IMG/VR virus record: IMGVR_UViG_3300047375_000738
DNA: 64,000 nucleotides
DNA from: a virus
Taxonomy: Duplodnaviria > Caudoviricetes
Strand: one strand, 5' to 3'
Made by a program: the position numbers and the translations under genes. Each line of letters opens with the position of its first letter. Position 1 is the first letter of the stretch. The notes below the pieces were generated by a model. The model saw only the letters and a program-made list of their open reading frames with translations, was not told the DNA's origin and made no database searches. Shown in pieces: positions 1,284-54,923 of this stretch.

Positions 1284-1785
1284 TACCACTAACACGATAG
1301 TTGTATAGTTCGGGTAGTTTGTGTATTAACCAATCCTTGCCAGTTATATGCTTTCGACATTGGCTTGCACCACAGCAGCATTTATCAATAATAGTATAAT
1401 CGTGATCAATAAACCCAGCATAATCTACAGTTATTTGTTCGTTTACATTAATGTCACGCAATGCAATGATTAAGTTTTCTTGAACGTATGCTGTAGGGTC
1501 GCAACTATGATTGTGGCAACCATTTAGCCAATATTTCAATCCACCTTGAAAGTGCCATGCACTGTTTACTAAATGAAAATAATCTTGTTTGTATACAGAT
1601 CTTTCTTCTTCGGTTAACCACATACCGCCCACACGATAAATGATATCTCCTTCTTTGATATCTTGAGTAGCAAACTTTCCATAGCCAACTGTATCATTAA
1701 TAAATTGCAACTCACTAGTATTACTACTAAGTCCTAAACTTATTTCGTGTGTATTTAAATATTCAATGAGCTTGTGTTTATTCAT
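1246..1785 (-). CDS. SET-domain methyltransferase-like protein with post-SET Cys motif
   Basis: GYGKFA...I.EGD, NHSCDP, EQITVDY, CCCGASQCR. Confidence 0.85.
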   Translation of the reverse strand: MNKHKLIEYLNTHEISLGLSSNTSELQFINDTVGYGKFATQDIKEGDIIYRVGGMWLTEEERSVYKQDYFHLVNSAWHFQGGLKYWLNGCHNHSCDPTAYVQENLIIALRDINVNEQITVDYAGFIDHDYTIIDKCCCGASQCRKHITGKDWLIHKLPELYNYRVSGTILTKWLQDQKI

Positions 1786-2665
1786 ATTTTATAGGTCTTA
1801 ATAGTTCTACACCAAACATCGGAATATATTCTTCAAACGGTATTAGTTGCTCGCCGTTATCACCTAAGTTTAATGCTAATAGTTTGTCTCTGTATTCTTT
1901 ATCTAAATCCATCATTAGTTCAAAGCCGGTAAGTTTGCCTCTAGGCTCAACATCAAAATCTTCAGCAATAATACTTGGTTTAATCTTTTTACTGTTTATA
2001 TATCTATCTTTGAAAGCTGTTTCTACCCAACGATATACACTTTCTTTTTGTAAGTAACTTATCATAGTTTCTGGTGTATATTGGAAAAAACTAGGAATAC
2101 ATTCTCTCTGTATATCTCGGAAATATGTATATAATGTAGTAACCCTAGCTTCTTCGCAATCATATACAGGCTTTTTTCCTATTTGGCGTATCAAGTAGTT
2201 TTCACCACCACCAAATACAGGTATACCATCCAAACGGTTGGCAAAGTAATAATACAAGTTTAGTTGAGGACTACTACAACGTGTGACTTGTGCAAAATCT
2301 ATTAACTGTGTTTTATAAAAATTTTCCACATTGATATCAATAATATCAGGAGATATACCTCTAGCTGCACATATTCTTAATGCATAGTTTATATCATGTA
2401 AGTTAAGATTTCGCTCATATTTAAATATAGCTACTCTAGGAGTTATGCCACATGCAATAAAACTATGTAACATAACTTCGCTGTCAAGGCCACCGCTTAA
2501 CAATAAAACAAGGTTGTCTCCGTGTAAATCATAAAGTTGCTGCGCTGTAGATTTACATTCATCTCTCCACGAACTATGAGAAGTCACAGTTCCGTGTTTA
2601 AAATAAAAGTCATCGTCACATGTAAATCCAACATTTACATGATTGTTTTTTGTATATTCGAACAT
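1778..2665 (-). CDS. PP-loop (adenine nucleotide alpha-hydrolase) family protein
   Basis: LLLSGGLDSE motif; no QueC C-terminal Zn-binding Cys cluster seen. Confidence 0.65.
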   Translation of the reverse strand: MFEYTKNNHVNVGFTCDDDFYFKHGTVTSHSSWRDECKSTAQQLYDLHGDNLVLLLSGGLDSEVMLHSFIACGITPRVAIFKYERNLNLHDINYALRICAARGISPDIIDINVENFYKTQLIDFAQVTRCSSPQLNLYYYFANRLDGIPVFGGGENYLIRQIGKKPVYDCEEARVTTLYTYFRDIQRECIPSFFQYTPETMISYLQKESVYRWVETAFKDRYINSKKIKPSIIAEDFDVEPRGKLTGFELMMDLDKEYRDKLLALNLGDNGEQLIPFEEYIPMFGVELLRPIKYE

Positions 2666-14414: not shown

Positions 14415-15308
14415 CTAAGTTCCCCAGGCATTTCCGAATAAGCTGATATGGAGTCTTGGGGTAAATCGCCATCCTTCTGCCATACACGCTTCAGCCACGT
14501 CTTTAACGTTGAGGGTGTATTCTTCACTGCGTCCGCCCATTGGCATAAGATATACCGGACATTCCACCCCGGCACTTCTGTAAGCGTCCACAGCTCTTTT
14601 AACTTCTTCAAAGTCGTCTTCAGTAGCCACAACAAACTTAAGATAAAGTTCGCTATCAGTAACGCACTGATACTCACTAGCAACATCAGGCTTGATAGCA
14701 GTTTCCCAAGGTTCTCCTGAGACACTAAGTTTTGGGGAACAACTCCAAGTGACTGTAAGTCTGTCGCTGTTGTTGAGATAGTTGTAGAGATCGTCGTGTA
14801 AATGTTGTGTAGTGTTTGTTTCAAATGTGATGTTCCTTAAATCCTGCATACGTGGATGTTCAAACAGCTCTACGTAAAGCCGTTGCCACGCTAACAACGG
14901 TTCACCGCCTGTCATGATCAAGTGTACATCTTGACCATTGTCCTGTACCCACTTACCATTAGGAGTAAGTGAAAGTAAATGCTCAACTACTTCGTCCACA
15001 GTTGCTTGTCGATTAAAGTGTTTAAACTCTGGATAGATACTTGCATATGTATCGCAACCTGTGTGTATAATAGGCAAGTCTGTAAATTCTTTAGTTGTTT
15101 CATGTACACCTGCGTCAAGTAATCCTTGTACTTCGGCATTGTGAATAATGCCTGCTTTTTGTTTTACATCACGCATTGGCTCGTTCTTTAAGCCAAAGTT
15201 CATACAACGAAAGTTACAACCGAAGGTGCGTAGGAATACACTGGGTACTCCTACAAACTTGCCTTCGCCTTGTACGCTATAAAAAGCTTCTGAATATCTA
15301 AGTTTCAT
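14415..15308 (-). CDS. queE: 7-carboxy-7-deazaguanine synthase (radical SAM)
   Basis: YSEAFYSVQGEG, FLRTFGCNFRC...GCDT, TGGEPL, FETN, SPKL, YLMP, TPRLH; start set at the TAATG overlap with folE. Confidence 0.9.
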   Translation of the reverse strand: MKLRYSEAFYSVQGEGKFVGVPSVFLRTFGCNFRCMNFGLKNEPMRDVKQKAGIIHNAEVQGLLDAGVHETTKEFTDLPIIHTGCDTYASIYPEFKHFNRQATVDEVVEHLLSLTPNGKWVQDNGQDVHLIMTGGEPLLAWQRLYVELFEHPRMQDLRNITFETNTTQHLHDDLYNYLNNSDRLTVTWSCSPKLSVSGEPWETAIKPDVASEYQCVTDSELYLKFVVATEDDFEEVKRAVDAYRSAGVECPVYLMPMGGRSEEYTLNVKDVAEACMAEGWRFTPRLHISLFGNAWGT

Positions 15309-15991
15309 TAGCAACTAAACTCCTGTTGTAGTTTAATGTTATCAAAGAACTCTTTCTTTGTACCTGCATCATCTTTAAATGCGCCACGTAGTACTGTAGT
15401 TTGTGTTAAACTACTATGTGCCATAATACCGCGATTCTCACAACAACCGTGTGTTGCTTGAATATAAACACCTAAATGTTCTGCACCAGTTGCGGCTTGG
15501 ATCTCACGTGCAATATCATTTGCAAGTTCTTCCTGTAGTGTGCCACGACGTGAACACCATTGTGCAATACGTGTGTACTTGCTTAGACCAATTAACTTAT
15601 CAGCGGCAATAATACCAATGTATGCAATACCTGCTACTGGCTGGTGATGATGCGAACACATACTTTTAAGTTCACTGCGTACTACTAACATACCTTCATA
15701 GCGATCATCGCTATCATTAGGAAATGCTGTTGCACTTGGCGCTGGATCATAACGTCCTGCCATAATTTCATTAAAGTACATTTTAGCAAGACGTCTTGCT
15801 GTGCCTTGTGAGTTAGGATCGTTATGACGATCAATCAATAGTGCATCTAGTACACCTTCAAATGCTGTAGTAGCATTATCAATAAGTTCTTCTTTATCAC
15901 CATTTTGTAATACTTGTGAAATATTGTCGCCTGCCCAGTGACGAATGCCTAGTTCATCTAGGCGGGCTTTTAGTTGTTCTGCTTTGCTCAT
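15308..15991 (-). CDS. folE: GTP cyclohydrolase I
   Basis: TARRLAKMY, SMCSHHHQP, GLSKYTRI, QEEL, HGCCENRG. Confidence 0.95.
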   Translation of the reverse strand: MSKAEQLKARLDELGIRHWAGDNISQVLQNGDKEELIDNATTAFEGVLDALLIDRHNDPNSQGTARRLAKMYFNEIMAGRYDPAPSATAFPNDSDDRYEGMLVVRSELKSMCSHHHQPVAGIAYIGIIAADKLIGLSKYTRIAQWCSRRGTLQEELANDIAREIQAATGAEHLGVYIQATHGCCENRGIMAHSSLTQTTVLRGAFKDDAGTKKEFFDNIKLQQEFSC

Positions 15992-16256: not shown

Positions 16257-16491
16257 TGTTTTCTCCTTTTAATGCTTTTATAGTTTGTTGTTTCTCTCTG
16301 TCTCTTACAAAGAGATCTTCACCAGCATACGTACTACATTTATCTAATGCATCTTCGATATGCCATAGTAACTCATACAAGTCTTTTTTACAACCCCAAG
16401 TAACAAATCCGTCCATTCGAGGATCGCTTTCAGCAAAACTAATTTTGTTTACGCCTTGTTTTAGGTCACTTAGACTCCAGTCAACTATCAT
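16249..16491 (-). CDS. Hypothetical protein
   Basis: Start reassigned to the ATGA overlap with the PRTase stop (MIVDWSL...). Confidence 0.7.
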   Translation of the reverse strand: MIVDWSLSDLKQGVNKISFAESDPRMDGFVTWGCKKDLYELLWHIEDALDKCSTYAGEDLFVRDREKQQTIKALKGENNA

Positions 16492-17006
16492 TCGTCGTAT
16501 TCCCAAGGAAACACAATCCAAGTATCTTCTTCGCTAGTGTCAATTTCTTTCCAATAATAATCAACACCGTCAAATTTTGTATGTGTCTTTTCACACATGG
16601 TAGCAAAGCGAACATTGTCATTCCAAACATCATTCCAGCCTTCGCTATTGGGCAAGCAACCGCTTTGCCAATCTTCTCTAATCCATTTGAACGTAGCACC
16701 TGTATCGTTAATGTCATCTACAATTAGTATTTGCTTTCGCATTTTAGGTTTGCATTGTCCATCGTGATATCCAAAAGCATCTTCGGCCATCCAGCAGTTT
16801 GATTCTTGTGTAGCATTGTCACGCAAACGCACATCTAGCGCATAATGATTACAGTTGAGCAGATGACTAAGCATTACACTAATTGGTAATCCACCTCTAT
16901 TCAATCCAACAATATAATCGGGCTTCCAGCCATCTTTATACATTTTTAACGCAATATTAGTTGCAGCCGTATTAACGTCTTGCCAACTATAGTATGTTTT
17001 TACCAT
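16488..17006 (-). CDS. Type I phosphoribosyltransferase, xanthine/guanine PRTase (Gpt)-like
   Basis: IVGLNRGGLP, PRPP-binding ILIVDDINDTGATF, WIVFPWE. Confidence 0.85.
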   Translation of the reverse strand: MVKTYYSWQDVNTAATNIALKMYKDGWKPDYIVGLNRGGLPISVMLSHLLNCNHYALDVRLRDNATQESNCWMAEDAFGYHDGQCKPKMRKQILIVDDINDTGATFKWIREDWQSGCLPNSEGWNDVWNDNVRFATMCEKTHTKFDGVDYYWKEIDTSEEDTWIVFPWEYDE

Positions 17007-17008
17007 TT

Positions 17009-17191
17009 TTAATACTCTACTTTTTGTTGTAAATATTGTATTTCGACGTGTTTTGCATTTATTTCGTCATTAAACCCATCTTCTAATCTATATGACACGC
17101 CTTGTTTATACAATTTAATATTTAATTTATTCATATTGTTTACTAAAGTGTTTAGTTCTTTAACCATTTGTTCTACTTTTGGATCTTTCAT
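17009..17191 (-). CDS. Hypothetical protein
   Basis: Start at the TAATG overlap with the metK stop. Confidence 0.7.
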   Translation of the reverse strand: MKDPKVEQMVKELNTLVNNMNKLNIKLYKQGVSYRLEDGFNDEINAKHVEIQYLQQKVEY

Positions 17192-18282
17192 TACCAACCG
17201 AGCCTTTCCCAAGGAACATCTTTATTACCAAAGTGTCCGTATGTACAGTTCTTACTATAGTTATTATACTTGAATAAATCGAATCTGTCAATGATTCCTT
17301 TTGGAGTCAAGTCAATCTCACGTTCAATAAACTTTGCAATACTAGCATTGTGTCCATTCGAATCAACATAAATGCTTGTAGGTTCTTTAACACCAATAGC
17401 ATAGCTCAACTGGATATTGCACCAGTCTGCCATATTGTCTGCTACTACATTCTTGGCGAGCCATCGTGCCATGTAGGCGGCACTTCTGTCGACTTTTGTT
17501 GGATCTTTGCCACTAAACGCACCGCCACCATGAGGAGCAAAACCCCCATAAGTATCAACAATAATTTTCCGCCCAGTAACACCTGCATCACCGTCAGGAC
17601 CACCAATAACGAAATTTCCAGTAGGGTTAAGATGCCATGTAGTTCTTTCATCAACTAAGTCTCCTAATTCTTCCATTGCGGCAAGTTTACAAAGATGTCT
17701 TGCTTCTTCTACGTTGCCTTCTGTGTGCTGTGTACTTATCACAACTTGATCAATACGTTTGATCACACCGTCACGTCTAGCACCATAGTACTCGACGCTT
17801 ACCTGACTTTTAGCATCTGGTCCTAGTATAGCACCACGTTTGCCTTTTAAGTTCTTTAGTATCTCATGACTGTAATGAATAGGTGCTGGCATCATACTGT
17901 CTGTATGATTACAAGCATAGCCAAACATCAAGCCTTGATCGCCTGCACCAAAGTCGTCTGTACCTAGTGCAATATCACCACTTTGTGAGTGAATCTCATT
18001 ATAGATACGCAAATTATCCCAATGAAACCCTTCTTGTTCATAACCAATCTCTTTAACTTTGTCACGCACGATTTGTTTAACTTTGTCCTTAGTGACATTA
18101 AAGTTTTTTACTTCGCCCGCTAACGTTACATGGTTAGTGGTTACAAGTGTTTCAATGGCAACACGAGAAGTTTCGTCTCCATTAGCAAGCCCGGCATCCA
18201 CTAGTGCATCAGATATTTGATCTGCTACTTTATCGGGGTGTCCGTCACTAACACTTTCGCTTGTAAAGATATAGTTGTTCAT
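17191..18282 (-). CDS. metK: S-adenosylmethionine synthetase
   Basis: FTSESVSDGHPDK, GAGDQG, GGPDGDAGVTGRKIIVDTYGG, GGGAFSGKDPTKVDRS. Confidence 0.97.
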   Translation of the reverse strand: MNNYIFTSESVSDGHPDKVADQISDALVDAGLANGDETSRVAIETLVTTNHVTLAGEVKNFNVTKDKVKQIVRDKVKEIGYEQEGFHWDNLRIYNEIHSQSGDIALGTDDFGAGDQGLMFGYACNHTDSMMPAPIHYSHEILKNLKGKRGAILGPDAKSQVSVEYYGARRDGVIKRIDQVVISTQHTEGNVEEARHLCKLAAMEELGDLVDERTTWHLNPTGNFVIGGPDGDAGVTGRKIIVDTYGGFAPHGGGAFSGKDPTKVDRSAAYMARWLAKNVVADNMADWCNIQLSYAIGVKEPTSIYVDSNGHNASIAKFIEREIDLTPKGIIDRFDLFKYNNYSKNCTYGHFGNKDVPWERLGW

Positions 18283-18503
18283 TTTTTCCATTCATCCATT
18301 TCTGTTTTTATTTCATCGCCTTCGCGATCATTTGCAATTGACATTGCCATACTTTGTATATCGTCAAGTAATGCATTTGCAATCGTCTTGTCGTATGTTT
18401 TACCACTTAGTTCGCTATATTGATTGCGTATACGATGTAGTTCGATAGCCTTATCTTTCATAACTTCGAGTCTTTGTATTAGTTCTTCAATAGTGTGTAG
18501 CAT
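18279..18503 (-). CDS. Hypothetical protein
   Basis: 74 aa, coupled on both sides. Confidence 0.75.
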   Translation of the reverse strand: MLHTIEELIQRLEVMKDKAIELHRIRNQYSELSGKTYDKTIANALLDDIQSMAMSIANDREGDEIKTEMDEWKK

Positions 18504-19555
18504 TAAAAGTAATCCTCCAATGTGCCTTTACGCTTTGTATCTAGTGTAGCACAGTGGAAGCCTCCGCTCATACTACGTGCTTGACGCATAGGTAGTCCAA
18601 TAGTATCAATGCCGTGCTTGCCTAATATACGTCTTAGTGCTTCTTGTTTTTCATCTACAACAACCAGTTCTTCGTTAACACTTAGGAAGTTAAGTCCAAT
18701 GTACGGGCTACACGGAGCAACACCTGTGTTTGCTGGCGGTACGTGTAGGTCTTCTTCGCCTACCCAAATCTTGTCCCAGTCTTTGAAAATAGGTGGGTAC
18801 CAATCTTCACTTAGTCTGCCTGCGTTTAACAGCACCAATCCAGGGCGTAGCGGCAGTACTGTGCTATCAAAGTGTGCAAAGCTATAGTACTTCTCAGCAA
18901 CGTGTAGGCGATAGCCTTTGGGCTCTAAGATAGTCTTAAGCCACTGAAAGCCTAGTTGGTTGCCACTGTTGCTTACTTGGCACAACAAGTCACGTCCCAT
19001 ACGAACAATATTTGGTGCATCAAAAATAATCTCTTTGTTTACTAGTGTAGCATCACGTCTGTCTTCTAGTTGATAGTTGTCATCTGTTAAGATAGGCTTT
19101 GGAGCATTGATCCACTGTGTACCTTCTTGCATCCAGCGATACAAATGTTCGTAGTATGCTCTAGTTTCAAAGTATCTTGCTCGCATAGGGCTTGGACATT
19201 CAATAATCATATTATCCAACGGCAGCAGCAAATCTCTTGGACAGAATGTATACCACCCTGTTGTTTCCCACTCTGGAGTGCTAAACTTTTTGTTGTGATC
19301 TACAGGCTCTGGACGCATTGTTTTTACACCTAGTCCTTGTAGACATTTTTCTAGCCCGTCAAGGTCTTCGTTTGCTTCGTCTACAATCCATTGTGCAATA
19401 GGTTGTCCATCAAACTGTTTGATGTCTTCTGCTTCTTCACCACCGTAGATAAAGCTGTGTGTACTCTTATTCATAGTAGGATGTACACAATTATCAGCAG
19501 TGCCGATGATAATTTCTTGCAATGGATCCCAATCGTTGTTACTCTGTACTGGCAA
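18503..19555 (-). CDS. Amidinotransferase (pentein fold; Arg:glycine / inosamine-phosphate amidinotransferase family)
   Basis: NDWDPLQEIIIG, CPRDLL, DAPN, SNSGNQLG, HFDST, C-terminal GGFHCATLD carrying the catalytic Cys. Confidence 0.9.
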   Translation of the reverse strand: MPVQSNNDWDPLQEIIIGTADNCVHPTMNKSTHSFIYGGEEAEDIKQFDGQPIAQWIVDEANEDLDGLEKCLQGLGVKTMRPEPVDHNKKFSTPEWETTGWYTFCPRDLLLPLDNMIIECPSPMRARYFETRAYYEHLYRWMQEGTQWINAPKPILTDDNYQLEDRRDATLVNKEIIFDAPNIVRMGRDLLCQVSNSGNQLGFQWLKTILEPKGYRLHVAEKYYSFAHFDSTVLPLRPGLVLLNAGRLSEDWYPPIFKDWDKIWVGEEDLHVPPANTGVAPCSPYIGLNFLSVNEELVVVDEKQEALRRILGKHGIDTIGLPMRQARSMSGGFHCATLDTKRKGTLEDYF

Positions 19556-20441
19556 AATTTAATCCTTTTATATACTGTTTATGGAAACTTAATCTATTTG
19601 TATTTCCGCCGCGATTATATTGGTTATATATATTTTTATCATCTATACCAAAAATTACTGTCGCACTTGGATTTATTCCTAGCTCATTACAAAATTCTTT
19701 TTGTTTTTGTATATATTTTTGTGGTATGTAGTCGGGTGTAAAGTTTTCAAGATACTTTATGCCTAATGCTGCACCTAGTTTGTTGTTATATGAAATTTTA
19801 TGGTATACAAACATAGTATCGTCGTCATCGACTTTAGTATATCTTATACCAATACGTGCATATGCTACTGGAAAACTTTTACTAAGGCTAAAAGTTACAT
19901 CAGTTATACAATTATATGCAATATCAATTGATACGCCGTAACAAGCACCAAAATATGCACAATCTACCAGTACTGGTATTCCAAGCTCACAGCACTCACG
20001 CATAAGTTCATGATACTTAGAGTGCTTGTCGCCTGTATCTGCAAATGGTAGACTAATTACTACTGCATCTGCTTTGTGCAACGGTTCATCTTCTAAATAT
20101 GCCCAAACATATTTGTCTCTCCAAGCAAGTTTATGATACATATACTCGCCTTTAAAACAGCGGAAGCGTCTTTTAGAATTTTTCATATAAAATTTATCAA
20201 ATGATTCGGTTGTTCCGTTGCTATAGCATTTGTATTTAAAATCTTCTAACCCTGTAATACTATTAACTGTTGATTTTTTAATCCATTTGTCGTAGTCATA
20301 CAAAAATTCGTCAATAATGTTGTCATTATTGAGACATTGTAGATCTAATGTATTACGTAAAAGTTTTGTAGTTTCTGGATCGCTTATTGCAAAAGCACTT
20401 CCAAAATCCATATGTCTTTTATCATTGGGTATATTTGTCAT
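19539..20441 (-). CDS. Fold-type I PLP-dependent enzyme (class I/II aminotransferase- or decarboxylase-like)
   Basis: NGTTESF, GEY, VLVDCAY, FSLSKSF (PLP Lys), ARIG. Confidence 0.75.
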   Translation of the reverse strand: MTNIPNDKRHMDFGSAFAISDPETTKLLRNTLDLQCLNNDNIIDEFLYDYDKWIKKSTVNSITGLEDFKYKCYSNGTTESFDKFYMKNSKRRFRCFKGEYMYHKLAWRDKYVWAYLEDEPLHKADAVVISLPFADTGDKHSKYHELMRECCELGIPVLVDCAYFGACYGVSIDIAYNCITDVTFSLSKSFPVAYARIGIRYTKVDDDDTMFVYHKISYNNKLGAALGIKYLENFTPDYIPQKYIQKQKEFCNELGINPSATVIFGIDDKNIYNQYNRGGNTNRLSFHKQYIKGLNFASTE

Positions 20442-21036
20442 CTTCGTCCAAAAATGTTATTTGCGAAACAATACATTCACTTGGACCAAAGTTTGACATT
20501 CCGTGCCATGTATCGCCTTTCCACGTATATGTATCACCTGCTTGCCAGTGTGTATATACTTCGTCGCCAACTTGTAACACTTGTCCTCTATCCCAATCCG
20601 ACATCATAGTAACAGTGCGACATATATCGTCTGCTTGATCCTCTGTGATATTATTAAATTTTACAAATGTAGCATATGTGTCAAAGTGCCACATTAAACT
20701 GCATCCGGGTGTTAGTTTTAAAAAGTTATAGTTAAATTTCATATGTGCATAAGGTACAATAACACTAGTTAAACCTTTTGTAAGCTCAGGTCTAATACAC
20801 ATATAATGTAAACTACCTTCTTTTGGTACTTTCCATTGTTTGTACATTGCTTCTAATGCTTTTTTATTTTTTGTAGCAAATGTATCCCAACTACTATCTT
20901 CTGGGATTTCATCTGTCATATGTGTAGCTTCCCAATCCAGTGTTAGTAGATCGTTTTTGCTCCATGTAACTTCGTCTACTGAACTTTCTTCAGCACCGTG
21001 TTGTTTCCATTCTTCGTAACTGCGCATGTCCATCAT
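20422..21036 (-). CDS. Cupin / Fe(II)-2OG oxygenase-like protein
   Basis: MWHFDTY (HxD) ... TWHGMSN. Confidence 0.65.
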   Translation of the reverse strand: MMDMRSYEEWKQHGAEESSVDEVTWSKNDLLTLDWEATHMTDEIPEDSSWDTFATKNKKALEAMYKQWKVPKEGSLHYMCIRPELTKGLTSVIVPYAHMKFNYNFLKLTPGCSLMWHFDTYATFVKFNNITEDQADDICRTVTMMSDWDRGQVLQVGDEVYTHWQAGDTYTWKGDTWHGMSNFGPSECIVSQITFLDEDDKYTQ

Positions 21037-21968
21037 GCTTCTCCTTTCAAGTGCGCCTCTATATATTGCCTATTTGGTATTTTATTTGTTTTTAGTATTT
21101 TTATAAGTTGATTTTTATCAGACTGCTCTAAGTTTATTATATTAAGTTTCTTTGGATATGTCAAGACATTTGTTGTCCATTTTTTATAATTATTAGCAAA
21201 TTCACACATATCAGGTAATCCTTGCCAGTTATTTTTATGTAGCGTTGTATGAATAGTATAATCAAATGTATCAGCAATTTCGTCTAATGTTTTGACTACT
21301 CTACTCCAAACACTACCGCCACGTACTTGTTCGTTTAATGCGCCTACTCCGTCAATACTAACTGTAAAATGTACATGTTTGCATTGACTAAGTAGTCTAT
21401 AATCATCTTCAACAAGTTTGTGCATACCATTAGTAAAGTACTCAACTTCTAAATGTTCTAAGGTGTCAAATGACTCTAGGAAGCGCCTATGTCTATTAGT
21501 CATTAATGGTTCGCCACCTAAGAAAACAACCTTACTAATGCTTTCTGGTATATTTCTAAATTCTGTAGTACTGGTAATTCCTTTTTTAGGAGGCAAGTCT
21601 GGGTTTTTCTTTACCCACCAACTGCTACTCCACTCTTCCCAACAGCCATCGCATGTAAGATCGCATATGTTATCAAATCCTACTTCAAGATATCTAAGTT
21701 TGATATCCATTGGGTATGTTTTATTAAACCATTCTCGTAAACTTTCCTTGCCGAGACTTTCTTCATGCTTGCACTTTGCACAATTTGGATCATCGATAGT
21801 AAAGTTCTCACGTAGTGCTTTATATTCGTCACTGTATAGTATACTGCCTACATCACCGTCAAATGTTTGTATAGGTGTTTTATAACGGCAGCAAGGGTAG
21901 ACACGATTGCCTCCCCTAATGTTTGTATGACTATATAATGCTGAACAACTAGAATGGAGTTTCATCAT
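21033..21968 (-). CDS. Radical SAM protein with N-terminal SPASM/twitch-like Cys cluster
   Basis: CDLTCDGC, FLGGEPL, YFTNG, VSIDG; PCC...CAKC. Confidence 0.9.
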   Translation of the reverse strand: MMKLHSSCSALYSHTNIRGGNRVYPCCRYKTPIQTFDGDVGSILYSDEYKALRENFTIDDPNCAKCKHEESLGKESLREWFNKTYPMDIKLRYLEVGFDNICDLTCDGCWEEWSSSWWVKKNPDLPPKKGITSTTEFRNIPESISKVVFLGGEPLMTNRHRRFLESFDTLEHLEVEYFTNGMHKLVEDDYRLLSQCKHVHFTVSIDGVGALNEQVRGGSVWSRVVKTLDEIADTFDYTIHTTLHKNNWQGLPDMCEFANNYKKWTTNVLTYPKKLNIINLEQSDKNQLIKILKTNKIPNRQYIEAHLKGEA

Positions 21969-22305
21969 TTTCTTGGTGATTTCCTTTATAGTCTTGCTCT
22001 ACCATTTTGTAAATTGTTTTAAAATTTTCGTATGCTTTTTCTAAAGCTGGGTAATATCCAACCATGTTATGTATTTTATCAATGCTAGGCATTGTATCTA
22101 CAAACTCAGTTTGTTCCCAGGTAATATTGTCAGCCCAATGTGTATCTTCGAGTGTGATAGTACTTGTTGTATCGATTGTAATAGTATCAATGCTGCTAGT
22201 ATCGATACTACTTATAGTAATGTCTGACACATCAAATGTTAAATCCTCGTCAATACTAGTATCAATTGTGATTGTGTCTTCTAAGTTCCAGTTCGTACTG
22301 GTCAT
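21949..22305 (-). CDS. Hypothetical protein with D/T/I-rich low-complexity N-terminus
   Basis: Repeated TITIDTS-like units. Confidence 0.7.
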   Translation of the reverse strand: MTSTNWNLEDTITIDTSIDEDLTFDVSDITISSIDTSSIDTITIDTTSTITLEDTHWADNITWEQTEFVDTMPSIDKIHNMVGYYPALEKAYENFKTIYKMVEQDYKGNHQENDETPF

Positions 22306-23137
22306 TGCACATTTCCTCTATTGTTTTTGTAAGTGTAACATGCTCGCTAAGAGTATCTACAACACTGCTCACAGCATCTCCTTCTCTACGAGGTGCTTCT
22401 ATAATATTTAATTGTTTACCAGTTACTTTTTGCATAGTGTCAATAACTTCTCTAACACTATATCCTACATTACTGCCTAAACATTCATATGGCGTATTTG
22501 CGGGGCCTCGTTCCACGGCTGTGACAATGGCGCCAGCCAAATCAACAACGTGAATATAATCACGAATGCAAGTGCCATCCCTAGTATCATAGTCCGTACC
22601 AAAGATCTTAAGGTCTGGTATCTTTTCACTAGCCACCATAGCAGCGACACGAATAAGATGGGTAGGAGCACCCAATTGACGATGAACACCGTCAGTACCA
22701 GATACGTTAAAAAATCTAAAGATGGTGTATCCATCTGCTTTCTCCTTAATTACATCTTCTGCTGCCACTTTACTGCGAGCATAAGGTGATGCCATTTCCC
22801 ACGCACTACTTGTACTAGCAAAAATTACATGTGGTGTTGTTGTCATTGATAGTAAGTTTGCTGTACCGCCTACATTTACTCTATAATACTCTGCTGGTTC
22901 TTTTAAACTATCAGGCACTACACTGCGTCCTGCAAGGTGTACAATAGCATCGTAGACGCCACCGGCATATTGACCAGTAACGTCTACGTTATAATACTCG
23001 TCACAGAATTCCTTAACATCATTAGTTTCGCCGTGGATTTCTGTATCCCAACCTATAACTTTATGACCTTTTTCTTTAAGTAATTTGCATACATGGCTAC
23101 CAATGTAACCGCTTGCACCTGTAACTAATACTTTCAT
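22262..23137 (-). CDS. galE: UDP-glucose 4-epimerase-like extended SDR
   Basis: VTGASGYIGS, HLAG, YARSK, RFFNVSG, GTCIRDYIHVVDLA. Confidence 0.85.
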   Translation of the reverse strand: MKVLVTGASGYIGSHVCKLLKEKGHKVIGWDTEIHGETNDVKEFCDEYYNVDVTGQYAGGVYDAIVHLAGRSVVPDSLKEPAEYYRVNVGGTANLLSMTTTPHVIFASTSSAWEMASPYARSKVAAEDVIKEKADGYTIFRFFNVSGTDGVHRQLGAPTHLIRVAAMVASEKIPDLKIFGTDYDTRDGTCIRDYIHVVDLAGAIVTAVERGPANTPYECLGSNVGYSVREVIDTMQKVTGKQLNIIEAPRREGDAVSSVVDTLSEHVTLTKTIEEMCNDQYELELRRHNHN

Positions 23138-23737
23138 TTATTGCTCTCGCAACTTTCCGGATAATGCTTTTAATAGCAATCCATATGCTGGTAAGAAGAT
23201 AATCAAACCTACTGCAATCTTTAGTACAGTTTGTGATCCTGCAATCTCCATCCAGTTTGCTGCCATATACTCGTCTGCTGAGTTGTTAAACGCAACAAAG
23301 AAGAATGTGTAACTATCAATTACGTTTGCAACTACAGTTGACAACGCTGGTGCTAACCACCATGCACGATACTTTTCACGCAAGTATTGGAATACATATA
23401 CGTCTAGCATTGTACCAACTGCATATGCTGTAGCACTTGCAAAGCCAATACGTAGTGCAACACTCTGCGGTGCACCTTCTAGCAATACTACTGCAATACT
23501 ACCAATGATAGCAAGCGGATAGGCTGCTGCGATAGTTGCTCGTGCAATATTCTTACCTAGCATACGCACAGTAAGATCGGTTGCAAGAACAACAATCGGG
23601 AATGTAAATGCAGCCCAGGTTAGTTTTACTCCAAAAAATTCAACTGGAATACTAACTAAAGCATTACTTACTACAACGACGATAACATGCAACAGCGCAA
23701 GTTTAATCATCATACTTTTATCAATATCTTTAAACAA
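23138..23737 (-). CDS. yhhQ: preQ0/preQ1 (queuosine precursor) transporter, VUT/YhhQ family
   Basis: Multi-TM; SNALV, TWAAFTFP, ATDLTVR, LDVYVF, WWLAPALST, WMEIA, FLPAYG match YhhQ as recalled. Confidence 0.9.
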   Translation of the reverse strand: MFKDIDKSMMIKLALLHVIVVVVSNALVSIPVEFFGVKLTWAAFTFPIVVLATDLTVRMLGKNIARATIAAAYPLAIIGSIAVVLLEGAPQSVALRIGFASATAYAVGTMLDVYVFQYLREKYRAWWLAPALSTVVANVIDSYTFFFVAFNNSADEYMAANWMEIAGSQTVLKIAVGLIIFLPAYGLLLKALSGKLREQ

Positions 23738-23754
23738 TTATTTCTCCTTCTTGT

Positions 23755-24921
23755 CTAATACTTGTTAACCGCTACATGATCTCTATAACGATTATCATCT
23801 CGCTTCCATTGTTCTCCGTTACCTTGCATAATATCAATGTAACGATCAATAGTAGCACTTGTCCAGTCACTAATTTTTCCCATATCTTTGTGTGGGCCTT
23901 CTAGTAACTTGTCAAGTTTGTTTCCTGCATCTTCAACACTCCAAGGTATATACATACGCTCATGACAGTTGGAAAAGATTTCAGGGAAACTTCTATAAGC
24001 AGGAAATAATACATTACAACCTAATGCATCAGCTTCGCTTACAGTATTACTTGTCCAGTCTTGTAAAGCACAGTTAAACAATACTTTACTATCGTTGACA
24101 ATATGGTAATATTCTTCTTTTTTAAGATTTTCATAAATCCTTAGTACACCTTTGCTTACTAAGTCGTTTGCACGTTCAATATACTTAGGATTATTACTAC
24201 GTAAAGGACCGCCTTGTAGTACAGCAAACTCAACATTTGTGTCTGCATACTTCTCAGCAAGATCCATATAAAAATCAGGTTGTTTTTCTTGATCCCAACG
24301 TGCTGCAAACACAACACGGTTGCTACGTGACTCCCAAAACGTTGGTGCTTCGCCGGATCGTTGTACAACTTCTCTTTTGTCAAAGGCTAATCCACTAATA
24401 TTGTAGAGCGGCGCCTTCCAATTAGCTACTTTCATATTAGCAATCATTTCTTCATTACTTGCTAATACTCCTGTAACAAATTCGTTGCACATTTCTTCGT
24501 ACAAACTCATCCATTTACCCATACCCCATACATGAACAAAGTCATCTGGGTCTACAGCTTGTGCAAGGCATCTAATAAACACCTTTGGCTGTTGGGTTGC
24601 TGGAATTTGATCCATAATGTACGGCAATGACTCCATACCAGGCTGAAACATATCTTCAAAGAAAATAACGTCTTCAGCTGTTACTTCGCCGTTGCGCATC
24701 ATTTGCACCAAGTTCATCATCTGCGACATAGCAAAGTAACTACGTCCGTGTGCATCAAGAACTTGTCCAACACTAATAGATTTAGTGTCATCAATTGTTG
24801 TACCAGGTACAACTACATAGTCAATACCACGTCTTTTGAAAGCACGTTCACTCCAGTCTTGCAACTGGAGTGTATAACGTCCTTCATATGGCTCTAAGCC
24901 CATATAAAATAGTTTACGCAT
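23755..24921 (-). CDS. GT-B fold glycosyltransferase (family 1/4-like)
   Basis: FAARWDQEKQPDF, ALQDWTSNTVSEA, LFPAYRSFPE donor-binding region. Confidence 0.8.
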   Translation of the reverse strand: MRKLFYMGLEPYEGRYTLQLQDWSERAFKRRGIDYVVVPGTTIDDTKSISVGQVLDAHGRSYFAMSQMMNLVQMMRNGEVTAEDVIFFEDMFQPGMESLPYIMDQIPATQQPKVFIRCLAQAVDPDDFVHVWGMGKWMSLYEEMCNEFVTGVLASNEEMIANMKVANWKAPLYNISGLAFDKREVVQRSGEAPTFWESRSNRVVFAARWDQEKQPDFYMDLAEKYADTNVEFAVLQGGPLRSNNPKYIERANDLVSKGVLRIYENLKKEEYYHIVNDSKVLFNCALQDWTSNTVSEADALGCNVLFPAYRSFPEIFSNCHERMYIPWSVEDAGNKLDKLLEGPHKDMGKISDWTSATIDRYIDIMQGNGEQWKRDDNRYRDHVAVNKY

Positions 24922-25121
24922 TAGCGTCTCCGAGGTTTACCACCACGTGCTTTTGCACGTAAGTAATTTTGATACTTCTGATACGCCTGCCATACAGGGT
25001 CAGATTTTTTATAAAGTGACTTTTCATCATACACTTTACCTTCAAAGCGACAGTAGTCGCGGAATTCGTCCAGATCGTTGAATACTTTCTGATACGCATC
25101 ACGATTAAATGTGATATTCAT
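24921..25121 (-). CDS. Hypothetical protein
   Basis: 66 aa, TAATG coupling to the GT. Confidence 0.75.
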   Translation of the reverse strand: MNITFNRDAYQKVFNDLDEFRDYCRFEGKVYDEKSLYKKSDPVWQAYQKYQNYLRAKARGGKPRRR

Positions 25122-25134
25122 TTACCTTATTCCT

Positions 25135-25560
25135 TTATGCTGGGTAAACAATTTGACAGCCGTTTTCGCCATCTTCGGCAACATCAATAACAACAAACCG
25201 GCTGGGGTATTTGTTGTTGATGTGTAGATACAAATCATCCGCAATCATTTCGCATGACTTGTAATCTAGTTCGAGAATATCTTCTTTATAAAGATTCTCT
25301 AACCAACGTTTGAATTGAATAAATTCAATGTCTCTATCGTTGTGTGTTACTTGAATTTGTACTTTAAAGTGAAACGTATGTCGATGTGGGTATCCTAAGA
25401 AACTTACATCGTATTCGTCACCTGTTGCCAGCGCAGGATCGTCGAGTGCTGCTGGATATTTGTGAATACCTTCTTTAGTAAAGGTTACCCAAATACTACG
25501 TTTTGCGTTTTCTAGTGCGTTTGCCATTTTAGCGTCCTCTTCTCTCATGCGCCGTTGCAT
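25135..25560 (-). CDS. queD: QueD-like 6-carboxytetrahydropterin synthase (T-fold)
   Basis: HRHTFHF Zn ligands, IEF, SCEMIA, V.V.EDGENG; start set at the leaderless ATG 25560. Confidence 0.75.
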   Translation of the reverse strand: MQRRMREEDAKMANALENAKRSIWVTFTKEGIHKYPAALDDPALATGDEYDVSFLGYPHRHTFHFKVQIQVTHNDRDIEFIQFKRWLENLYKEDILELDYKSCEMIADDLYLHINNKYPSRFVVIDVAEDGENGCQIVYPA

Positions 25561-25566
25561 ATATGT

Positions 25567-25595
25567 ATAATAACGTTCTTGTTGCATATTGTCAA
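25567..25595 (-). promoter_or_regulatory. sigma70-type promoter TTGACA-N17-TATTAT, leaderless
   Basis: In-frame ATG at 25560 lies 6 nt after the -10 box. Confidence 0.8.
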
Positions 25596-26119
25596 GTGAT
25601 AATTGTGTCTGTAGTGTATTTAGACCAGTCTGTAAAAACAGCCTTCTCTTTTAAATCATGTAGTCTATGAACCCATACACCAGGGTTACTTGCATCAAAG
25701 TCTTTATCGTCAATTTTTAAACAAGCATTATATCCAAGTTGATCGATATACGGAAGTTTTACGCTAATCATTGGAATAAAGCGGTTGTGTTCTGTGAATC
25801 CACTTTCTAGCAACCCTTCAATTTGGCTTGCATCAGCATCTAGTGTGACCCAATAGCCTTCTTTCAATAATGGAAATATCATAGCTTCCCAAGGTTTCCA
25901 TTCGCTTTCTGTATTGCTAGTGACATTGAAACTCATATTAGCACCACAGTAGATATGTTTACATCCTTGCATTTCAGCCATGGCTATTACTTCGTCTGGA
26001 TCCATGGCACCTACAACGAATAGTGTTTTCTTTCCAAACTGTGGTGTATGTTCAACTTCTGTTCCAACAAAATATTGAACACTTTCGATATCGGTTCCTT
26101 GATCGTAAACTCTTTTCAT
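25592..26119 (-). CDS. Hypothetical protein inside the deazaguanine cluster
   Basis: 175 aa; EVEHTP, HIYCGAN, WVH motifs. Confidence 0.85.
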   Translation of the reverse strand: MKRVYDQGTDIESVQYFVGTEVEHTPQFGKKTLFVVGAMDPDEVIAMAEMQGCKHIYCGANMSFNVTSNTESEWKPWEAMIFPLLKEGYWVTLDADASQIEGLLESGFTEHNRFIPMISVKLPYIDQLGYNACLKIDDKDFDASNPGVWVHRLHDLKEKAVFTDWSKYTTDTIIT

Positions 26120-28038: not shown

Positions 28039-28041
28039 GTA

Positions 28042-28770: not shown

Positions 28771-28790
28771 GTGATTCTCCTATATGTATT

Positions 28791-28819
28791 ATTGTACTGC
28801 ATATTTGGTATAAAGTCAA
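28791..28819 (-). promoter_or_regulatory. sigma70-type promoter TTGACT-N17-TACAAT
   Basis: Upstream of the clamp-like gene, followed by AGGAG. Confidence 0.8.
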
Positions 28820-29748
28820 CCAAATAAACTACTAACTGATTCTTCGTTTGTGACACGTCTAATAGCTTCGCCAAATAGTTGACTTACACTTACGTATCGG
28901 GTCTTTTTGCAATTCTTTGGACAGCGATTGTTAATACTGTCTGTTACTACTAGTTCTTCTAGTACACTCTTCTCAACTTTTTGACATGCTTCTCCGCTTA
29001 GTACTCCGTGTGTGATATATGCTCTAACACTTAGAGCACCGGCATCCATAATTGCTTTGGCTGCATTGCACAATGTACCACCTGAGTCGATAATGTCATC
29101 AACCAGAATGGCGTGTTTACCAGTAACATCGCCGATCAAGTTCATGACTTCGCTCTTACCCGCTTCAGGACGCATCTTATCTACAATAGCAATGTCTGCG
29201 TGGAACATATCAGCAAACTTTCTAGCACGAACAACTCCGCCTGCATCCGGCGATACAAATACTGTACCTTGTTCTGTTCCTACATTGCGTTTAATATCTT
29301 TGGCAAACACCAATCGGCTTGTTAAATCGTCTACTGGAATATCAAAGAAGCCCTGTATCTGTCCTGCGTGTAAATCCATTGTAAGTATTCTATCTGCACC
29401 TGCTGTTGCTAGTAGGTTAGCAACTAGTTTTGCTGTAATAGGTGTACGTGAAGCACTCTTACGGTCTTGTCTTGCATAACCAAAGTAAGGAATAACTGCT
29501 GTGATCCGTCTAGCACTTGATCTCTGTGCAGCATCGATCATAATCAATAGTTCCATTAGGCTATCATTTACAGGAGTACATGTACTTTGTACTATAAAAA
29601 CATCTTCGCCACGTATGTTATCATGAAACTCTACAGTTGTTTCGCCATCGGCAAATGTATCAATTTTAGATGGAACTAACGCTGCAAAACAATGCTCTGC
29701 AATTTCTTCTGCTAGAGCCATATTAGCGTTTCCGGCAATTATTTTCAC
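28816..29748 (-). CDS. prs: Ribose-phosphate pyrophosphokinase
   Basis: [52 protein letters not shown]. Confidence 0.97.
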
Positions 29749-45150: not shown

Positions 45151-45849
45151 CTATTTATCAATATCTTCCTTGTACACAATTTTATCGATACGAGTAATAT
45201 TGTCACCGCAAATCAGTTGTACCATGAATAAAACTTTTTCGTCACGTACAAAAATATATTGTCCTTTGATCCAACGCTCTCTATTAAGAAAGTTTTTCAT
45301 TAGTACAGGCCCACAACGTGCTTTGTCAGTGTTGTTTTGTAGCCATGTGCCCATTGAACGCTTTGCTGTTTTCTGTCCAAACGTTAATTTAATTGGAAAG
45401 TTTGTTTTTTTGTCACTAAGTATAATGTTTGCATTAGATTGTAAGTATTTAATACTTGCTGTATCAGGTTCCCAAAATTCTTCAGCAATTTCAAACTTTG
45501 AAATTGTAGTTAGAAGTTTTTTATCATTACTATAGATTATTAGTGTATTATATTCACAACGTACTAAATATTCTTTACTATGTAATAACAATCTGCAAAT
45601 TTTATCAGCATCTGTTATGTCATTAGAATCAAGATGTAACTCACTACGCCACGTAGTCTTCTTTAACGGTAGTCCTAATTTTGCTGAAAGTTTGTAACTA
45701 TCAATTTGGCTACGTGCATAACTTAGTTTGCCGTTGCGTTGCATTTCAGTTCTAAACACACTTGCTAATGGACTACGGACGACTACTTTATATAGAAATC
45801 GTCCGTAGTGTAGTTTTTTGGTTTCAAACTTCTTCAACAACTTGTTCAA
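45151..45849 (-). CDS. Hypothetical basic protein
   Basis: 232-aa ORF downstream of clpA. Confidence 0.75.
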   Translation of the reverse strand: MNKLLKKFETKKLHYGRFLYKVVVRSPLASVFRTEMQRNGKLSYARSQIDSYKLSAKLGLPLKKTTWRSELHLDSNDITDADKICRLLLHSKEYLVRCEYNTLIIYSNDKKLLTTISKFEIAEEFWEPDTASIKYLQSNANIILSDKKTNFPIKLTFGQKTAKRSMGTWLQNNTDKARCGPVLMKNFLNRERWIKGQYIFVRDEKVLFMVQLICGDNITRIDKIVYKEDIDK

Positions 45850-48073: not shown

Positions 48074-48599
48074 TTCTTATTGCCTTTTTAATATCTTTAA
48101 TACGTTTTGTTTCTGCACGTTTTAGTTTGAATTTACTTACTCGATCAATGTATTGTATACCGTGCAAATGATCATACTCGTGTAAGAAAATTCTAGCATC
48201 GATGTCGTCCAGTTTCATCTCTACATGTATAACATTTTTATAGTCATTTGTCAAGGTATCAAATCCAACAATACAACTAATTGGACGTTTTACTTTTAGT
48301 ATTAGTCCAGGATGACTAAGACACCCTTCGGGTCCTAGTTCAATTTCTTTACTAAGTCCTTTAATTTCAGGATTGATAACTGTAACAATATCTCCGTGCT
48401 GTTTATTTAAAAATGCTTTCATTACAAAAATTTGTCCAGAGAACCCTACTTGGTTTGCACTAAGTCCAACACCGCCATGTTTATTCATAACGTCAATCAT
48501 GTCTAGTGCCTTTGGAGCAGGGTGTCCAAAGTATTCTTGGTCGTAAACATCCACTGCTGTTTCAAGCTGTGGATCAGGTGCGATTACTAAGTTCATCAT
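48066..48599 (-). CDS. def: Peptide deformylase
   Basis: GVGLSANQVG, EGCLS, HEYDH. Confidence 0.95.
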   Translation of the reverse strand: MMNLVIAPDPQLETAVDVYDQEYFGHPAPKALDMIDVMNKHGGVGLSANQVGFSGQIFVMKAFLNKQHGDIVTVINPEIKGLSKEIELGPEGCLSHPGLILKVKRPISCIVGFDTLTNDYKNVIHVEMKLDDIDARIFLHEYDHLHGIQYIDRVSKFKLKRAETKRIKDIKKAIRNG

Positions 48600-49398
48600 A
48601 TAACTTTTTTACCTTTTCTTCATCTTCTATAGTATTTAATTTAGGAAGGGTTCCCTTAATATGCAAATACAAATGTCCAGTACGTCCTTGTCTTGGATCT
48701 GGGATACCTTGCCCGCCTACACTTAATGTTGTACTAGGCGCAGTACTCTTAGGTATTGTAACACGTAAAGGACCGCCTGTCAACTTATCAATTATTATTA
48801 CAGTACCTAACATTAGATCAAATACACTTACGTCTATATTAGAATGTAAGTTTATGCCATCACGATCGTATCTTGGATGTGCTTGAACTCGGACTTGTAC
48901 TAATAAATCGCCTCTTGGCAAACGTGGATTAGAGTTATCACCTAAGCCTTGATATCTAATTACTTGTCCGTTTTGGACACCTTGTTGTATCTTTATACTA
49001 GCACTACTTTCTAAACCATTTGGCAGTTTGTATGTGGCTAAAATATCTCTGCCTTCCATAACATCACGTAGTGTAATATTTACTGCAATTTTAACATCGC
49101 TATTTTTTTGTGGGCGTTGCTGTTGTGCAAATCCTCTGCCAAACATTGCTTCAAATATATCATTCACACTTCCAGCGCCAGCATTCATCGACTGTGTATT
49201 CATTCTAACTTGGGGGCTGTCGTATGCCTGCCTCTTAGCAGGATCCTTTAAGGTTTCGTATGCTTCATTTATTTGTGAAAATTTAGCACCGTCGCCACCG
49301 TGGTCAGGATGATGTTTCATAGCCGACTTGCGGTATGCTTTTTTTATTTCATCCTGACTAGCTTGTTTGTTAATACCTAATATACTGTAATAGTCCAT
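48574..49398 (-). CDS. Class II J-domain co-chaperone (DnaJ/CbpA-like, no Zn finger)
   Basis: DYYSILG, HHPD, INEAYETL, GDLLV. Confidence 0.9.
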   Translation of the reverse strand: MDYYSILGINKQASQDEIKKAYRKSAMKHHPDHGGDGAKFSQINEAYETLKDPAKRQAYDSPQVRMNTQSMNAGAGSVNDIFEAMFGRGFAQQQRPQKNSDVKIAVNITLRDVMEGRDILATYKLPNGLESSASIKIQQGVQNGQVIRYQGLGDNSNPRLPRGDLLVQVRVQAHPRYDRDGINLHSNIDVSVFDLMLGTVIIIDKLTGGPLRVTIPKSTAPSTTLSVGGQGIPDPRQGRTGHLYLHIKGTLPKLNTIEDEEKVKKLYDELSNRT

Positions 49399-54723: not shown

Positions 54724-54923
54724 ACGTCCTCCCACCATCGAATAGTCCATACCATTGCTTCTTTTTCACAAGTAAAACTAAAGTATCCTTTGCCATCTTC
54801 GTGTCCCCAAGCCCACGGATGCTTACAATGTAATTCTGTCCATTTAAGAACATATTCCATAATAGCATCACGTGGAAGAACAACATCGTGTTCAAAGTGC
54901 TTATTATAATTCGGATAAGCCAT
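54702..54923 (-). CDS. Hypothetical protein
   Basis: Start reassigned to MAYPNYNKH to avoid a long thyX overlap. Confidence 0.55.
   Translation of the reverse strand: MAYPNYNKHFEHDVVLPRDAIMEYVLKWTELHCKHPWAWGHEDGKGYFSFTCEKEAMVWTIRWWEDVCRQQLK

Follow-up and report, generated by a model that had tools for sequence, protein, structure and literature searches.

What does a glycosyltransferase do among the 7-deazaguanine genes of an uncultured phage? In the IMG/VR record IMGVR_UViG_3300047375_000738, of which one stretch of 64,000 nt was analysed (the window; coordinates count from its first letter), the gene for a predicted glycosyltransferase, P0002, stands among genes for a QueD-like T-fold protein, a YhhQ transporter, and a GalE-like epimerase. 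The initial annotation had suggested that this enzyme may add a UDP-galactose-derived sugar to the side chain of a deazaguanine in DNA or tRNA, an interpretation that our results support in part. Sequence comparisons lead us, with moderate confidence, to regard the glycosyltransferase as belonging specifically to a pathway that replaces guanine in phage DNA, in which it would glycosylate the product of DpdL, a predicted 7-carboxy-7-deazaguanine decarboxylase.

The glycosyltransferase and its partners

The sequence of P0002 by itself matches known families faintly. It scores 18.1 bits on Pfam Glycos_transf_1, under the cut-off of 26.4, and a Pfam scan at E 0.01 returns just two weak GT4-type matches. 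A single-sequence search of the PDB found nothing below E 0.7, and the family profile retrieved weak GT4 matches only (WlaC at E 3e-4). Other members of the family do pass Pfam cut-offs (P0043 with 27.7 bits; P0056 with 34.8 bits on Glyco_trans_1_4). Among 1.84 billion representative proteins, relatives form 884 clusters at 50% identity, 544 of them with E <= 1e-10. An alignment of 72 sequences (A1; ~30-57% identity) was used to build an AlphaFold (AF2) model with a predicted local distance difference test (pLDDT) score of 95.1 and a predicted template modeling score of 0.92. The model has two Rossmann-like domains in a GT-B arrangement and aligns with GT4 structures at Z 24-27 across 300-340 residues (Foldseek, VIA-align). 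The best matches are tied among sucrose-phosphate synthase (SPS), BshA, MshA, SenB, PglA, glycogen synthase, and BGluT; GT4 enzymes are thus closest in the fold search, and not the T4 BGT and AGT enzymes with which a structural comparison had been proposed. R208, E212, and K213 are invariant in the 72 sequences, and D288-x7-E296 appears to take the position of the E-x7-E motif of GT4 enzymes. As modelled, the protein is a true GT-B enzyme with a confident GT4-like fold.

The glycosyltransferase family is viral. Among 185,579 bacterial and archaeal genomes (one representative per species), it was found on only two short contigs, both from one metagenome-assembled genome. Two groups of candidates were set aside: among long family members, considered as possible fusions, P0043 shows only a disordered tail, and weak matches in phages of the PhiXhv-12 type (E 1e-4) belong to a separate BshA-like GT4 group encoded beside GlmS and a BshB-like deacetylase.

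The gene labelled queD in the initial annotation encodes DpdL. Its product has no PF01242 match at E 0.01 and reads LGYPHRHTF (L64...H68-R69-H70) in place of the CxxxHGH motif of QueD, and the catalytic cysteine is gone. The motif LxxxHRHxF identifies DpdL, for which 7-carboxy-7-deazaguanine decarboxylase activity was predicted in Cellulophaga phage phiST; the DNA of this phage contains 2'-deoxy-7-deazaguanosine (dDG) (Cui, Hutinet et al. 2023, PMC10516641 section 16). The window protein finds phiST gp040 (E 5e-9) and ACP17 (E 1e-34) in tblastn searches, with PA5oct also matched; it is homologous to phiST CGPG_00067 and has the conserved His and Glu as well. Residues H42, H68, R69, H70, F72, E88, and E113 are invariant in the alignment, and neither the single sequence nor the profile has a match in the PDB. 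The base expected from DpdL is 7-deazaguanine, which lacks a C7 side chain, so that the sugar would not be carried on a side chain as first supposed. In Vibrio phage Bakedbeans, DpdL corresponds to the C-terminal third of a larger protein (gp176, 383-393 aa; L173:7191-8372), the N-terminal 260 aa of which have no detectable relation to phiST DpdA3.

An upstream 517-aa open reading frame (ORF) is read as a long DpdA, a transglycosylase of the TGT superfamily, because it contains DSGGFQ, aligns by BLASTP with ACP17 ASD50403 (E 1e-4), belongs to a profile (31 sequences, A3) whose PDB matches down to E ~1.4 are all TGT/QTRT1 chains (best E 2.3e-5), and has a homolog in phage BUDD annotated as queuine tRNA-ribosyltransferase. 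The long-DpdA family numbers at least 7,800 clusters at 90% identity. Residues D100, S101, G103, D145, G195, and D293 are invariant, and the D100-G103 DSGG motif is invariant or nearly so. The protein has no Pfam match, PF01702 included, and a PF01702 search over 16 related records found nothing, since this clade is too distant from the Pfam model; distant DpdA subfamilies are known to require profile-profile methods (PMC10516641 section 17). The deazaguanine module is set among genes for DNA polymerase, sliding clamp, and RNase H. Because its partner is a DNA-type DpdA within this replication module, the glycosyltransferase is unlikely to target tRNA, the second substrate that had been envisaged. 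Between the DpdA and DpdL genes lies the gene for a 175-aa protein (P0003), which is kept in 70 of the 80 close loci described below and in ACP17. Its model reaches pLDDT 88, with no convincing relative in the fold, PDB-profile, or Atlas feature searches (Foldseek E >= 0.03; best VIA Z 6.5).

Linkage of the glycosyltransferase with deazaguanine genes

To follow the gene through uncultured viruses, we collected 160 loci in two scans of IMG/VR, 80 with glycosyltransferases close to that of the window (67-90% identity) and 80 from a distant subfamily (26-35% identity to the distant family member used as query), and added three distant representatives and two loci from the cellular-genome scan. 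Each ORF was scored with family hidden Markov models built here, and counts were restricted to the 113 loci in which the glycosyltransferase gene is flanked by 2.5 kb or more on either side (67 close and 46 distant). All 113 carry one or more deazaguanine genes (67/67 close, 46/46 distant). DpdL is present in 108 (66/67 and 42/46), long DpdA in 101 (67/67 and 34/46), FolE in 100 (59/67 and 41/46), and a GalE-like short-chain dehydrogenase/reductase (SDR) in 93 (66/67 and 27/46); a phosphoribosyltransferase (PRTase) accompanies 68 of the 113. In the 108, DpdL lies directly upstream of the glycosyltransferase on the same strand (median ~0.8-1.1 kb), and the SDR lies downstream (median ~1.1 kb), an arrangement that, in 93 of 113 loci, fits a UDP-hexose donor. 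The linkage persists to ~30% identity between glycosyltransferases and across differing gene orders. Homologs standing apart from que or dpd genes, the pattern that the initial annotation had named as contrary evidence, were not found: every one of the 113 loci carries such a gene, and the cellular genomes add a single metagenome-assembled genome. DpdL occurs without the glycosyltransferase, and the converse is rare (none of the 113 loci lacks all deazaguanine genes, and DpdL went undetected in five), as would be expected of an enzyme that acts after DpdL.

The same association is found in cultured phages. The module of ACP17 comprises, in a row, QueD, FolE, the 175-aa homolog (ASD50402), DpdA (ASD50403, 424 aa), the glycosyltransferase (ASD50404, 342 aa), DpdL, and QueE. 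PA5oct has the DpdA-like, glycosyltransferase, and DpdL genes together with QueE nearby, and BUDD has the glycosyltransferase, a 'queuine tRNA-ribosyltransferase', DpdL, and QueE. The glycosyltransferase is also present in BCSR5, BUCT-ZZ01, and Phosso, the first two of which have the full trio of glycosyltransferase, DpdL, and DpdA. When the whole records of 12 cultured DpdL phages were searched with the glycosyltransferase and long-DpdA profiles, both were present in BUCT-ZZ01, ACP17, PA5oct, Phosso, BUDD, and BCSR5, and both were absent from phiST, RHph_I1_18, Ahp1, Bakedbeans, D479, and MA9V-3. The two genes are ~170 kb apart in Phosso, so their association does not depend on adjacency. Such perfect co-occurrence in 12 genomes might also be expected if the glycosyltransferase assisted the long DpdA as an accessory subunit with no catalysis of its own, for instance by handling DNA or the base. 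We consider this highly improbable, since its putative catalytic residues and donor-binding residues (R208, E212, K213, and D288-x7-E296) are invariant or nearly so in sequences that share as little as ~30% identity, and the conservation of GalE next to it points to the use of a sugar donor.

It is unlikely that the enzyme glycosylates another acceptor, such as 5-hydroxymethylcytosine or 5-hydroxymethyluracil, a protein, or a host surface glycan, and that its adjacency to DpdL reflects inherited synteny. T-even phages do glucosylate 5-hydroxymethylcytosine with GT-B enzymes, and the upstream genes for an NDP-sugar dehydrogenase fragment, a HAD/PMM-like protein, and an RfaE-II-like nucleotidyltransferase would suit a different glycosylation. 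However, the linkage holds despite divergence and rearranged gene orders and recurs in six cultured lineages whose hosts differ widely; in the window, ThyX was found but neither a dCMP nor a dUMP hydroxymethylase; and the family is confined to deazaguanine contexts, with the PhiXhv-12 matches falling outside it.

The hosts of phages with the module include Pseudomonas, Acidovorax, Xanthomonas, Burkholderia, and Sinorhizobium. The DNA of PA5oct resists several restriction enzymes with G in their sites, from which the authors of the END-nuclease preprint inferred a modified G (PMC12191111). Expression of ACP17 dpdA and dpdL in E. coli yielded no dDG, and the authors suggested that further enzymes may be needed (Cui et al., PMC10516641). 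The ACP17 glycosyltransferase gene lies between dpdL and the gene read here as dpdA, and its omission may explain this result.

BUCT-ZZ01 is the sole cultured phage with a close homolog of the window glycosyltransferase. It is a 156-kb member of the Kyanoviridae, whereas CheckV completeness estimates put relatives of the window at ~350 kb (for example, a 343,632-bp genome rated 99% complete), and the module is therefore common to phages of very different genome sizes. Megablast of 20 kb from the window against isolated phages gave no match. The host of BUCT-ZZ01 is Synechococcus PCC 7942, from which BGluT comes; BGluT structures (5zes, 9v0l) are tied with the top fold matches of the glycosyltransferase at Z 24-25. 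Moreover, FolE, a T-fold protein, an SDR, and a glycosyltransferase are all four enzyme classes of a pterin-glycoside pathway like that for cyanobacterial biopterin glucoside, which would have no role in DNA. We judge a pterin role very unlikely, since the T-fold protein is without the PTPS/QueD catalytic cysteine, the SDR is of the nucleotide-sugar epimerase and not the sepiapterin-reductase type, QueE and DpdA co-occur with the glycosyltransferase, the module is also found in phages of the five other hosts, and the DNA of PA5oct has a modified G.

Proposed pathway and acceptor

FolE, QueD, and QueE make 7-carboxy-7-deazaguanine. In the phage of the window, FolE and QueE, with QueD supplied by the host or encoded elsewhere in the genome, would provide this precursor. 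From the literature, DpdL would then decarboxylate it to 7-deazaguanine, and the long DpdA would exchange guanine in DNA for the deazapurine. The step proposed here is that the GT4-like enzyme transfers a hexose from UDP-hexose to the DpdL product, either while the base is still free, ahead of its insertion by a co-evolved DpdA, or once it stands in DNA, with the adjacent GalE-like epimerase keeping UDP-hexose available. In either case, a 7-deazaguanine bearing a sugar would be present in the virion DNA and shield it from restriction. YhhQ may be an occasional addition that imports deazapurine precursors, and in the clade of the window the sugar or the base may be modified further by a cassette with an aminotransferase and an amidinotransferase.

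To our knowledge, each known phage DNA glycosylation takes place on DNA, which favours DNA as the acceptor. The free base is favoured by the coupling to DpdL, the co-inheritance with one DpdA clade, the acidic isoelectric point (pI) of the family, and the precedent of HuiG in the huimycin pathway, a GT4-type enzyme by which GlcNAc is attached to a 7-deazapurine as the free base (bioRxiv 10.64898/2026.04.15.718813). The dependence of the glycosyltransferase on DpdL further suggests that the freed C7 matters. On this ground, a more specific route can be drawn, which we hold to be distinctly improbable as a whole: DpdL would free a nucleophilic pyrrole C7, the glycosyltransferase would add a sugar at this or another atom of the free base, a long DpdA that has co-evolved would insert the bulky product, and, in the clade of the window, the cassette would turn the added sugar into a guanidino sugar with a positive charge.

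The HuiG precedent also bears on the idea that the product of the glycosyltransferase is a soluble 7-deazapurine glycoside or a metabolite resembling a nucleoside, in the style of huimycin or tubercidin, with the PRTase and a phosphoribosyl pyrophosphate (PRPP) synthetase feeding a nucleotide branch. In tubercidin biosynthesis, a PF00156 enzyme joins 7-carboxy-7-deazaguanine to PRPP; the window encodes both a PF00156 protein and a PRPP synthetase, a PRTase recurs across the loci at the frequency given above, and fold neighbours of the glycosyltransferase include GT4 enzymes with small acceptors. We nonetheless regard a soluble product as quite unlikely, since the glycosyltransferase is strictly accompanied by a DNA transglycosylase of the DpdA type, also where the two genes are unlinked, the module lies among replication genes, and the PRTase could merely salvage guanine released by base exchange.

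Several points weigh against glycosylation of the DpdL product for DNA. 7-Deazaguanine has no obvious hydroxyl acceptor, and the 64-kb window yielded neither a canonical QueD nor a clear QueC. The decarboxylase activity of DpdL is a prediction, and heterologous tests of it failed (PMC10516641 section 16). The glycosyltransferase family is acidic (median pI 5.4), unlike a DNA binder. T4 AGT and BGT are not among its 50 best fold matches (Foldseek, VIA); all GT-B folds are related, however, and the absence of such a match does not exclude a DNA acceptor. The loci were all gathered by glycosyltransferase similarity, with flanks of at most 10 kb, and the co-occurrence with long DpdA in 12 cultured phages (Fisher's exact two-sided p = 2/924, ~0.002) ignores phylogeny and serves only as a guide.

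Layout of the locus and comparison with known systems

All genes of the region 22262-25587 are on the minus strand (Table 1), and the gene order and coordinates agree with those of the initial annotation, including the abutment of galE and yhhQ: the TAA stop of yhhQ (23140-23138) directly touches the ATG of the epimerase gene (23137). As had been noted, the glycosyltransferase gene lies between the T-fold gene and yhhQ, the T-fold gene being dpdL and not queD. Its ATG overlaps the stop codon of a 66-aa ORF as TAATG, and homologs of this ORF occur at the same position in 32 of 82 loci. Sequence features suggest that the true start of DpdL is probably M21 at 25527, giving a protein of ~130 aa, since homolog alignments begin near there. 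The promoter reported upstream of the block is a candidate only. The sequence TTGACA-17-TATTAT (25595-25567) matches 11 of 12 consensus positions and is the best site in 21500-28900, with a predicted transcription start at ~25560, ahead of a GAGG Shine-Dalgarno sequence and M21, but promoter-like sites in the whole region are as numerous as in shuffled sequence.

Table 1 Genes and other features discussed in the text, with positions in the 64,000-nt window
Feature	Coordinates	Strand	Basis
GalE-like UDP-hexose 4-epimerase, 291 aa	22262..23137	-	Pfam Epimerase
YhhQ/COG1738 queuosine-precursor (preQ0/preQ1) transporter	23138..23737	-	Vut_1, TIGR00697
GT-B (GT4-like, probably retaining) glycosyltransferase P0002, 388 aa	23755..24921	-	AF2 model, fold search
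66-aa ORF, basic C-terminus	24921..25121	-	ORF reading
DpdL (QueD-like T-fold), predicted 7-carboxy-7-deazaguanine decarboxylase	25135..25587	-	LxxxHRHxF, tblastn
Sigma-70-like promoter candidate before DpdL-glycosyltransferase-yhhQ-galE	25567..25595	-	TTGACA-17-TATTAT, consensus match only
Conserved 175-aa protein P0003, between DpdA and DpdL	25592..26119	-	Homologs in loci
Long DpdA/TGT-superfamily transglycosylase, 517 aa	26485..28038	-	DSGGFQ, profile match to TGT
FolE (GTP cyclohydrolase I), entry step of deazaguanine synthesis	15308..15991	-	PF01227 E 6e-38
QueE-like radical SAM protein (7-carboxy-7-deazaguanine synthase)	14415..15314	-	NCBIfam QueE models
Purine-type phosphoribosyltransferase (XPRT-like)	16488..17006	-	PF00156 E 6e-12; NF006613 E 1.5e-10
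Clade-specific cassette, galE to PRTase: twitch radical SAM, 204-aa ORF, aminotransferase-like, amidinotransferase	18503..21968	-	
StrB1-like amidinotransferase of the cassette	18503..19555	-	Match to 1bwd
295-aa ORF	1778..2665	-	Marginal QueC/PP-loop match
MetK	17191..18291		
PRPP synthetase	28816..29748		
NDP-sugar dehydrogenase homolog, 246 aa	29745..30485	-	
ClpB-like AAA+ protein (749 aa), peptide deformylase, DnaJ	45824..49398	-	
PhoH	53747..54469	+	
ThyX	54904..55575		
B12-binding radical SAM protein	61236..63125		

The identity of YhhQ is clear (Vut_1 with 87.8 bits against a cut-off of 27.2, E 1.2e-24; TIGR00697 with 112 bits against 51; NF008406 E 1.8e-56). Its link to the glycosyltransferase, on which the initial annotation had drawn, is incidental: yhhQ is present in only 4 of the 80 close and none of the 85 distant loci, directly after the glycosyltransferase gene as in the window in two (L004, L006) and elsewhere in two (L076, L081). 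It is a recurrent recruit and not a core member of the module. The epimerase matches Pfam Epimerase (E 1.9e-35) and, as the best of 25 SDR models, TIGR01179, with 208.9 bits under an equivalog cut-off of 262.3. It is ~40 aa shorter than typical GalE, and its N-terminus (MKVLVTGASGYIG) has the motif GASGYIG. By sequence it appears to be a GalE-like enzyme of the nucleotide-sugar epimerase or dehydratase type, and a role in supplying the sugar donor for the glycosyltransferase is probable.

The QueE-like protein is matched by five NCBIfam QueE models (E 6e-12 to 9e-8), every one under its cut-off, and is homologous to the annotated QueE of BUCT-ZZ01, ACP17, and phiST. The matches cover residues 4-38 and 131-265, which points to ~90 inserted residues following the motif for the radical SAM cluster. 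The 295-aa ORF has a marginal QueC/PP-loop match (22.6 bits against a cut-off of 22, in the N-terminal 70 residues only) and could account for the amidotransferase-type step that is missing, or else be a PP-loop ATPase unrelated to the pathway. A conserved 242-aa neighbour considered as a pathway member turned out to be the sliding clamp.

The window shares the cassette, in the same gene order, with six of its closest relatives. Its twitch radical SAM protein scores 170.1 bits on N_Twi_rSAM, and the aminotransferase reading of a 300-aa ORF is an Atlas lead only. The amidinotransferase, missed by Pfam and NCBIfam alike, matches inosamine-phosphate amidinotransferase 1bwd (E 2.4e-85) as well as HsvA, SxtG, and AGAT. 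In streptomycin biosynthesis, an aminotransferase and amidinotransferase pair makes a guanidino cyclitol, and it is conceivable that the cassette tailors the sugar further, or acts on an aminomethyl base imported by YhhQ. More distant amidinotransferase-like genes adjoin FolE in four loci (L041, L042, L061, L062).

Other genes of the window encode MetK, PRPP synthetase, ThyX, PhoH, a B12-binding radical SAM protein, and a chaperone and maturation set of a ClpB-like AAA+ protein, peptide deformylase, and DnaJ. The NDP-sugar dehydrogenase homolog covers positions 70-296 of a 413-position model and is without the N-terminal Rossmann start and C-terminal domain, yet it is kept in 42 of 80 close loci; it adjoins the HAD/PMM-like gene and the gene for a nucleotidyltransferase like RfaE domain II.

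All eight 7-deazaguanine DNA bases known to us are small C7 variants, and we know of no sugar-bearing purine in DNA. In agreement with the initial annotation, full-text literature searches found no description of a glycosylated deazaguanine in phage DNA. The tight tie of a glycosyltransferase to DpdL and one DpdA clade predicts such a base, which, if formed through the C7 route, would be the first glycosylated purine analogue in any DNA. It would also imply a new enzyme activity and offer substrates for studying restriction, CRISPR, and modification-sensing defences. Jumbo phages that are abundant in aquatic samples but uncultured carry the glycosyltransferase module, as do cultured phages such as PA5oct, a Pseudomonas jumbo phage of relevance to therapy.

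The closest known system is the dDG system of phiST (PMC10516641), which likewise has FolE, QueE, DpdL with LxxxHRHxF, and a transglycosylase of the TGT superfamily clustered beside replication genes, and which also lacks QueC, so that the pathway ends at 7-carboxy-7-deazaguanine and its decarboxylated product. Unlike the window, phiST has neither glycosyltransferase nor GalE, and its DpdA3 is short (259 aa), with no connection to the 517-aa protein by the long-DpdA profile or phmmer. Relative to phiST, the window adds a GT4-like enzyme and a long DpdA that are inherited together. T4 AGT and BGT resemble the window enzyme, as its role is proposed here, in being phage GT-B proteins that use UDP-hexose, are encoded among replication genes, and presumably protect DNA; the acceptor of the window enzyme would, in contrast, be a purine analogue and not a hydroxymethyl pyrimidine, and no hydroxymethylase was seen in the window. 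HuiG, likened to P0002 by its description, is of the same GT4 class, is encoded with FolE, QueD, and QueE, and transfers a sugar from a UDP-sugar to a 7-deazaguanine-type heterocycle, but it belongs to actinobacterial secondary metabolism, works without a partner transglycosylase, and takes as its substrate an O-methylated base derived from preQ0. The GT4 enzymes with small acceptors (BshA, MshA, SPS, SenB, BGluT) share the two-domain fold (Z 24-27 over 300-340 residues) and the E/D-x7-E motif with the window glycosyltransferase; they are only 8-13% identical to it, and its family is virus-only and has a different genomic context. The system of the window is thus best described as a variant of the known 7-deazaguanine DNA modification systems, the new part of which is a glycosyltransferase that travels with a long DpdA.

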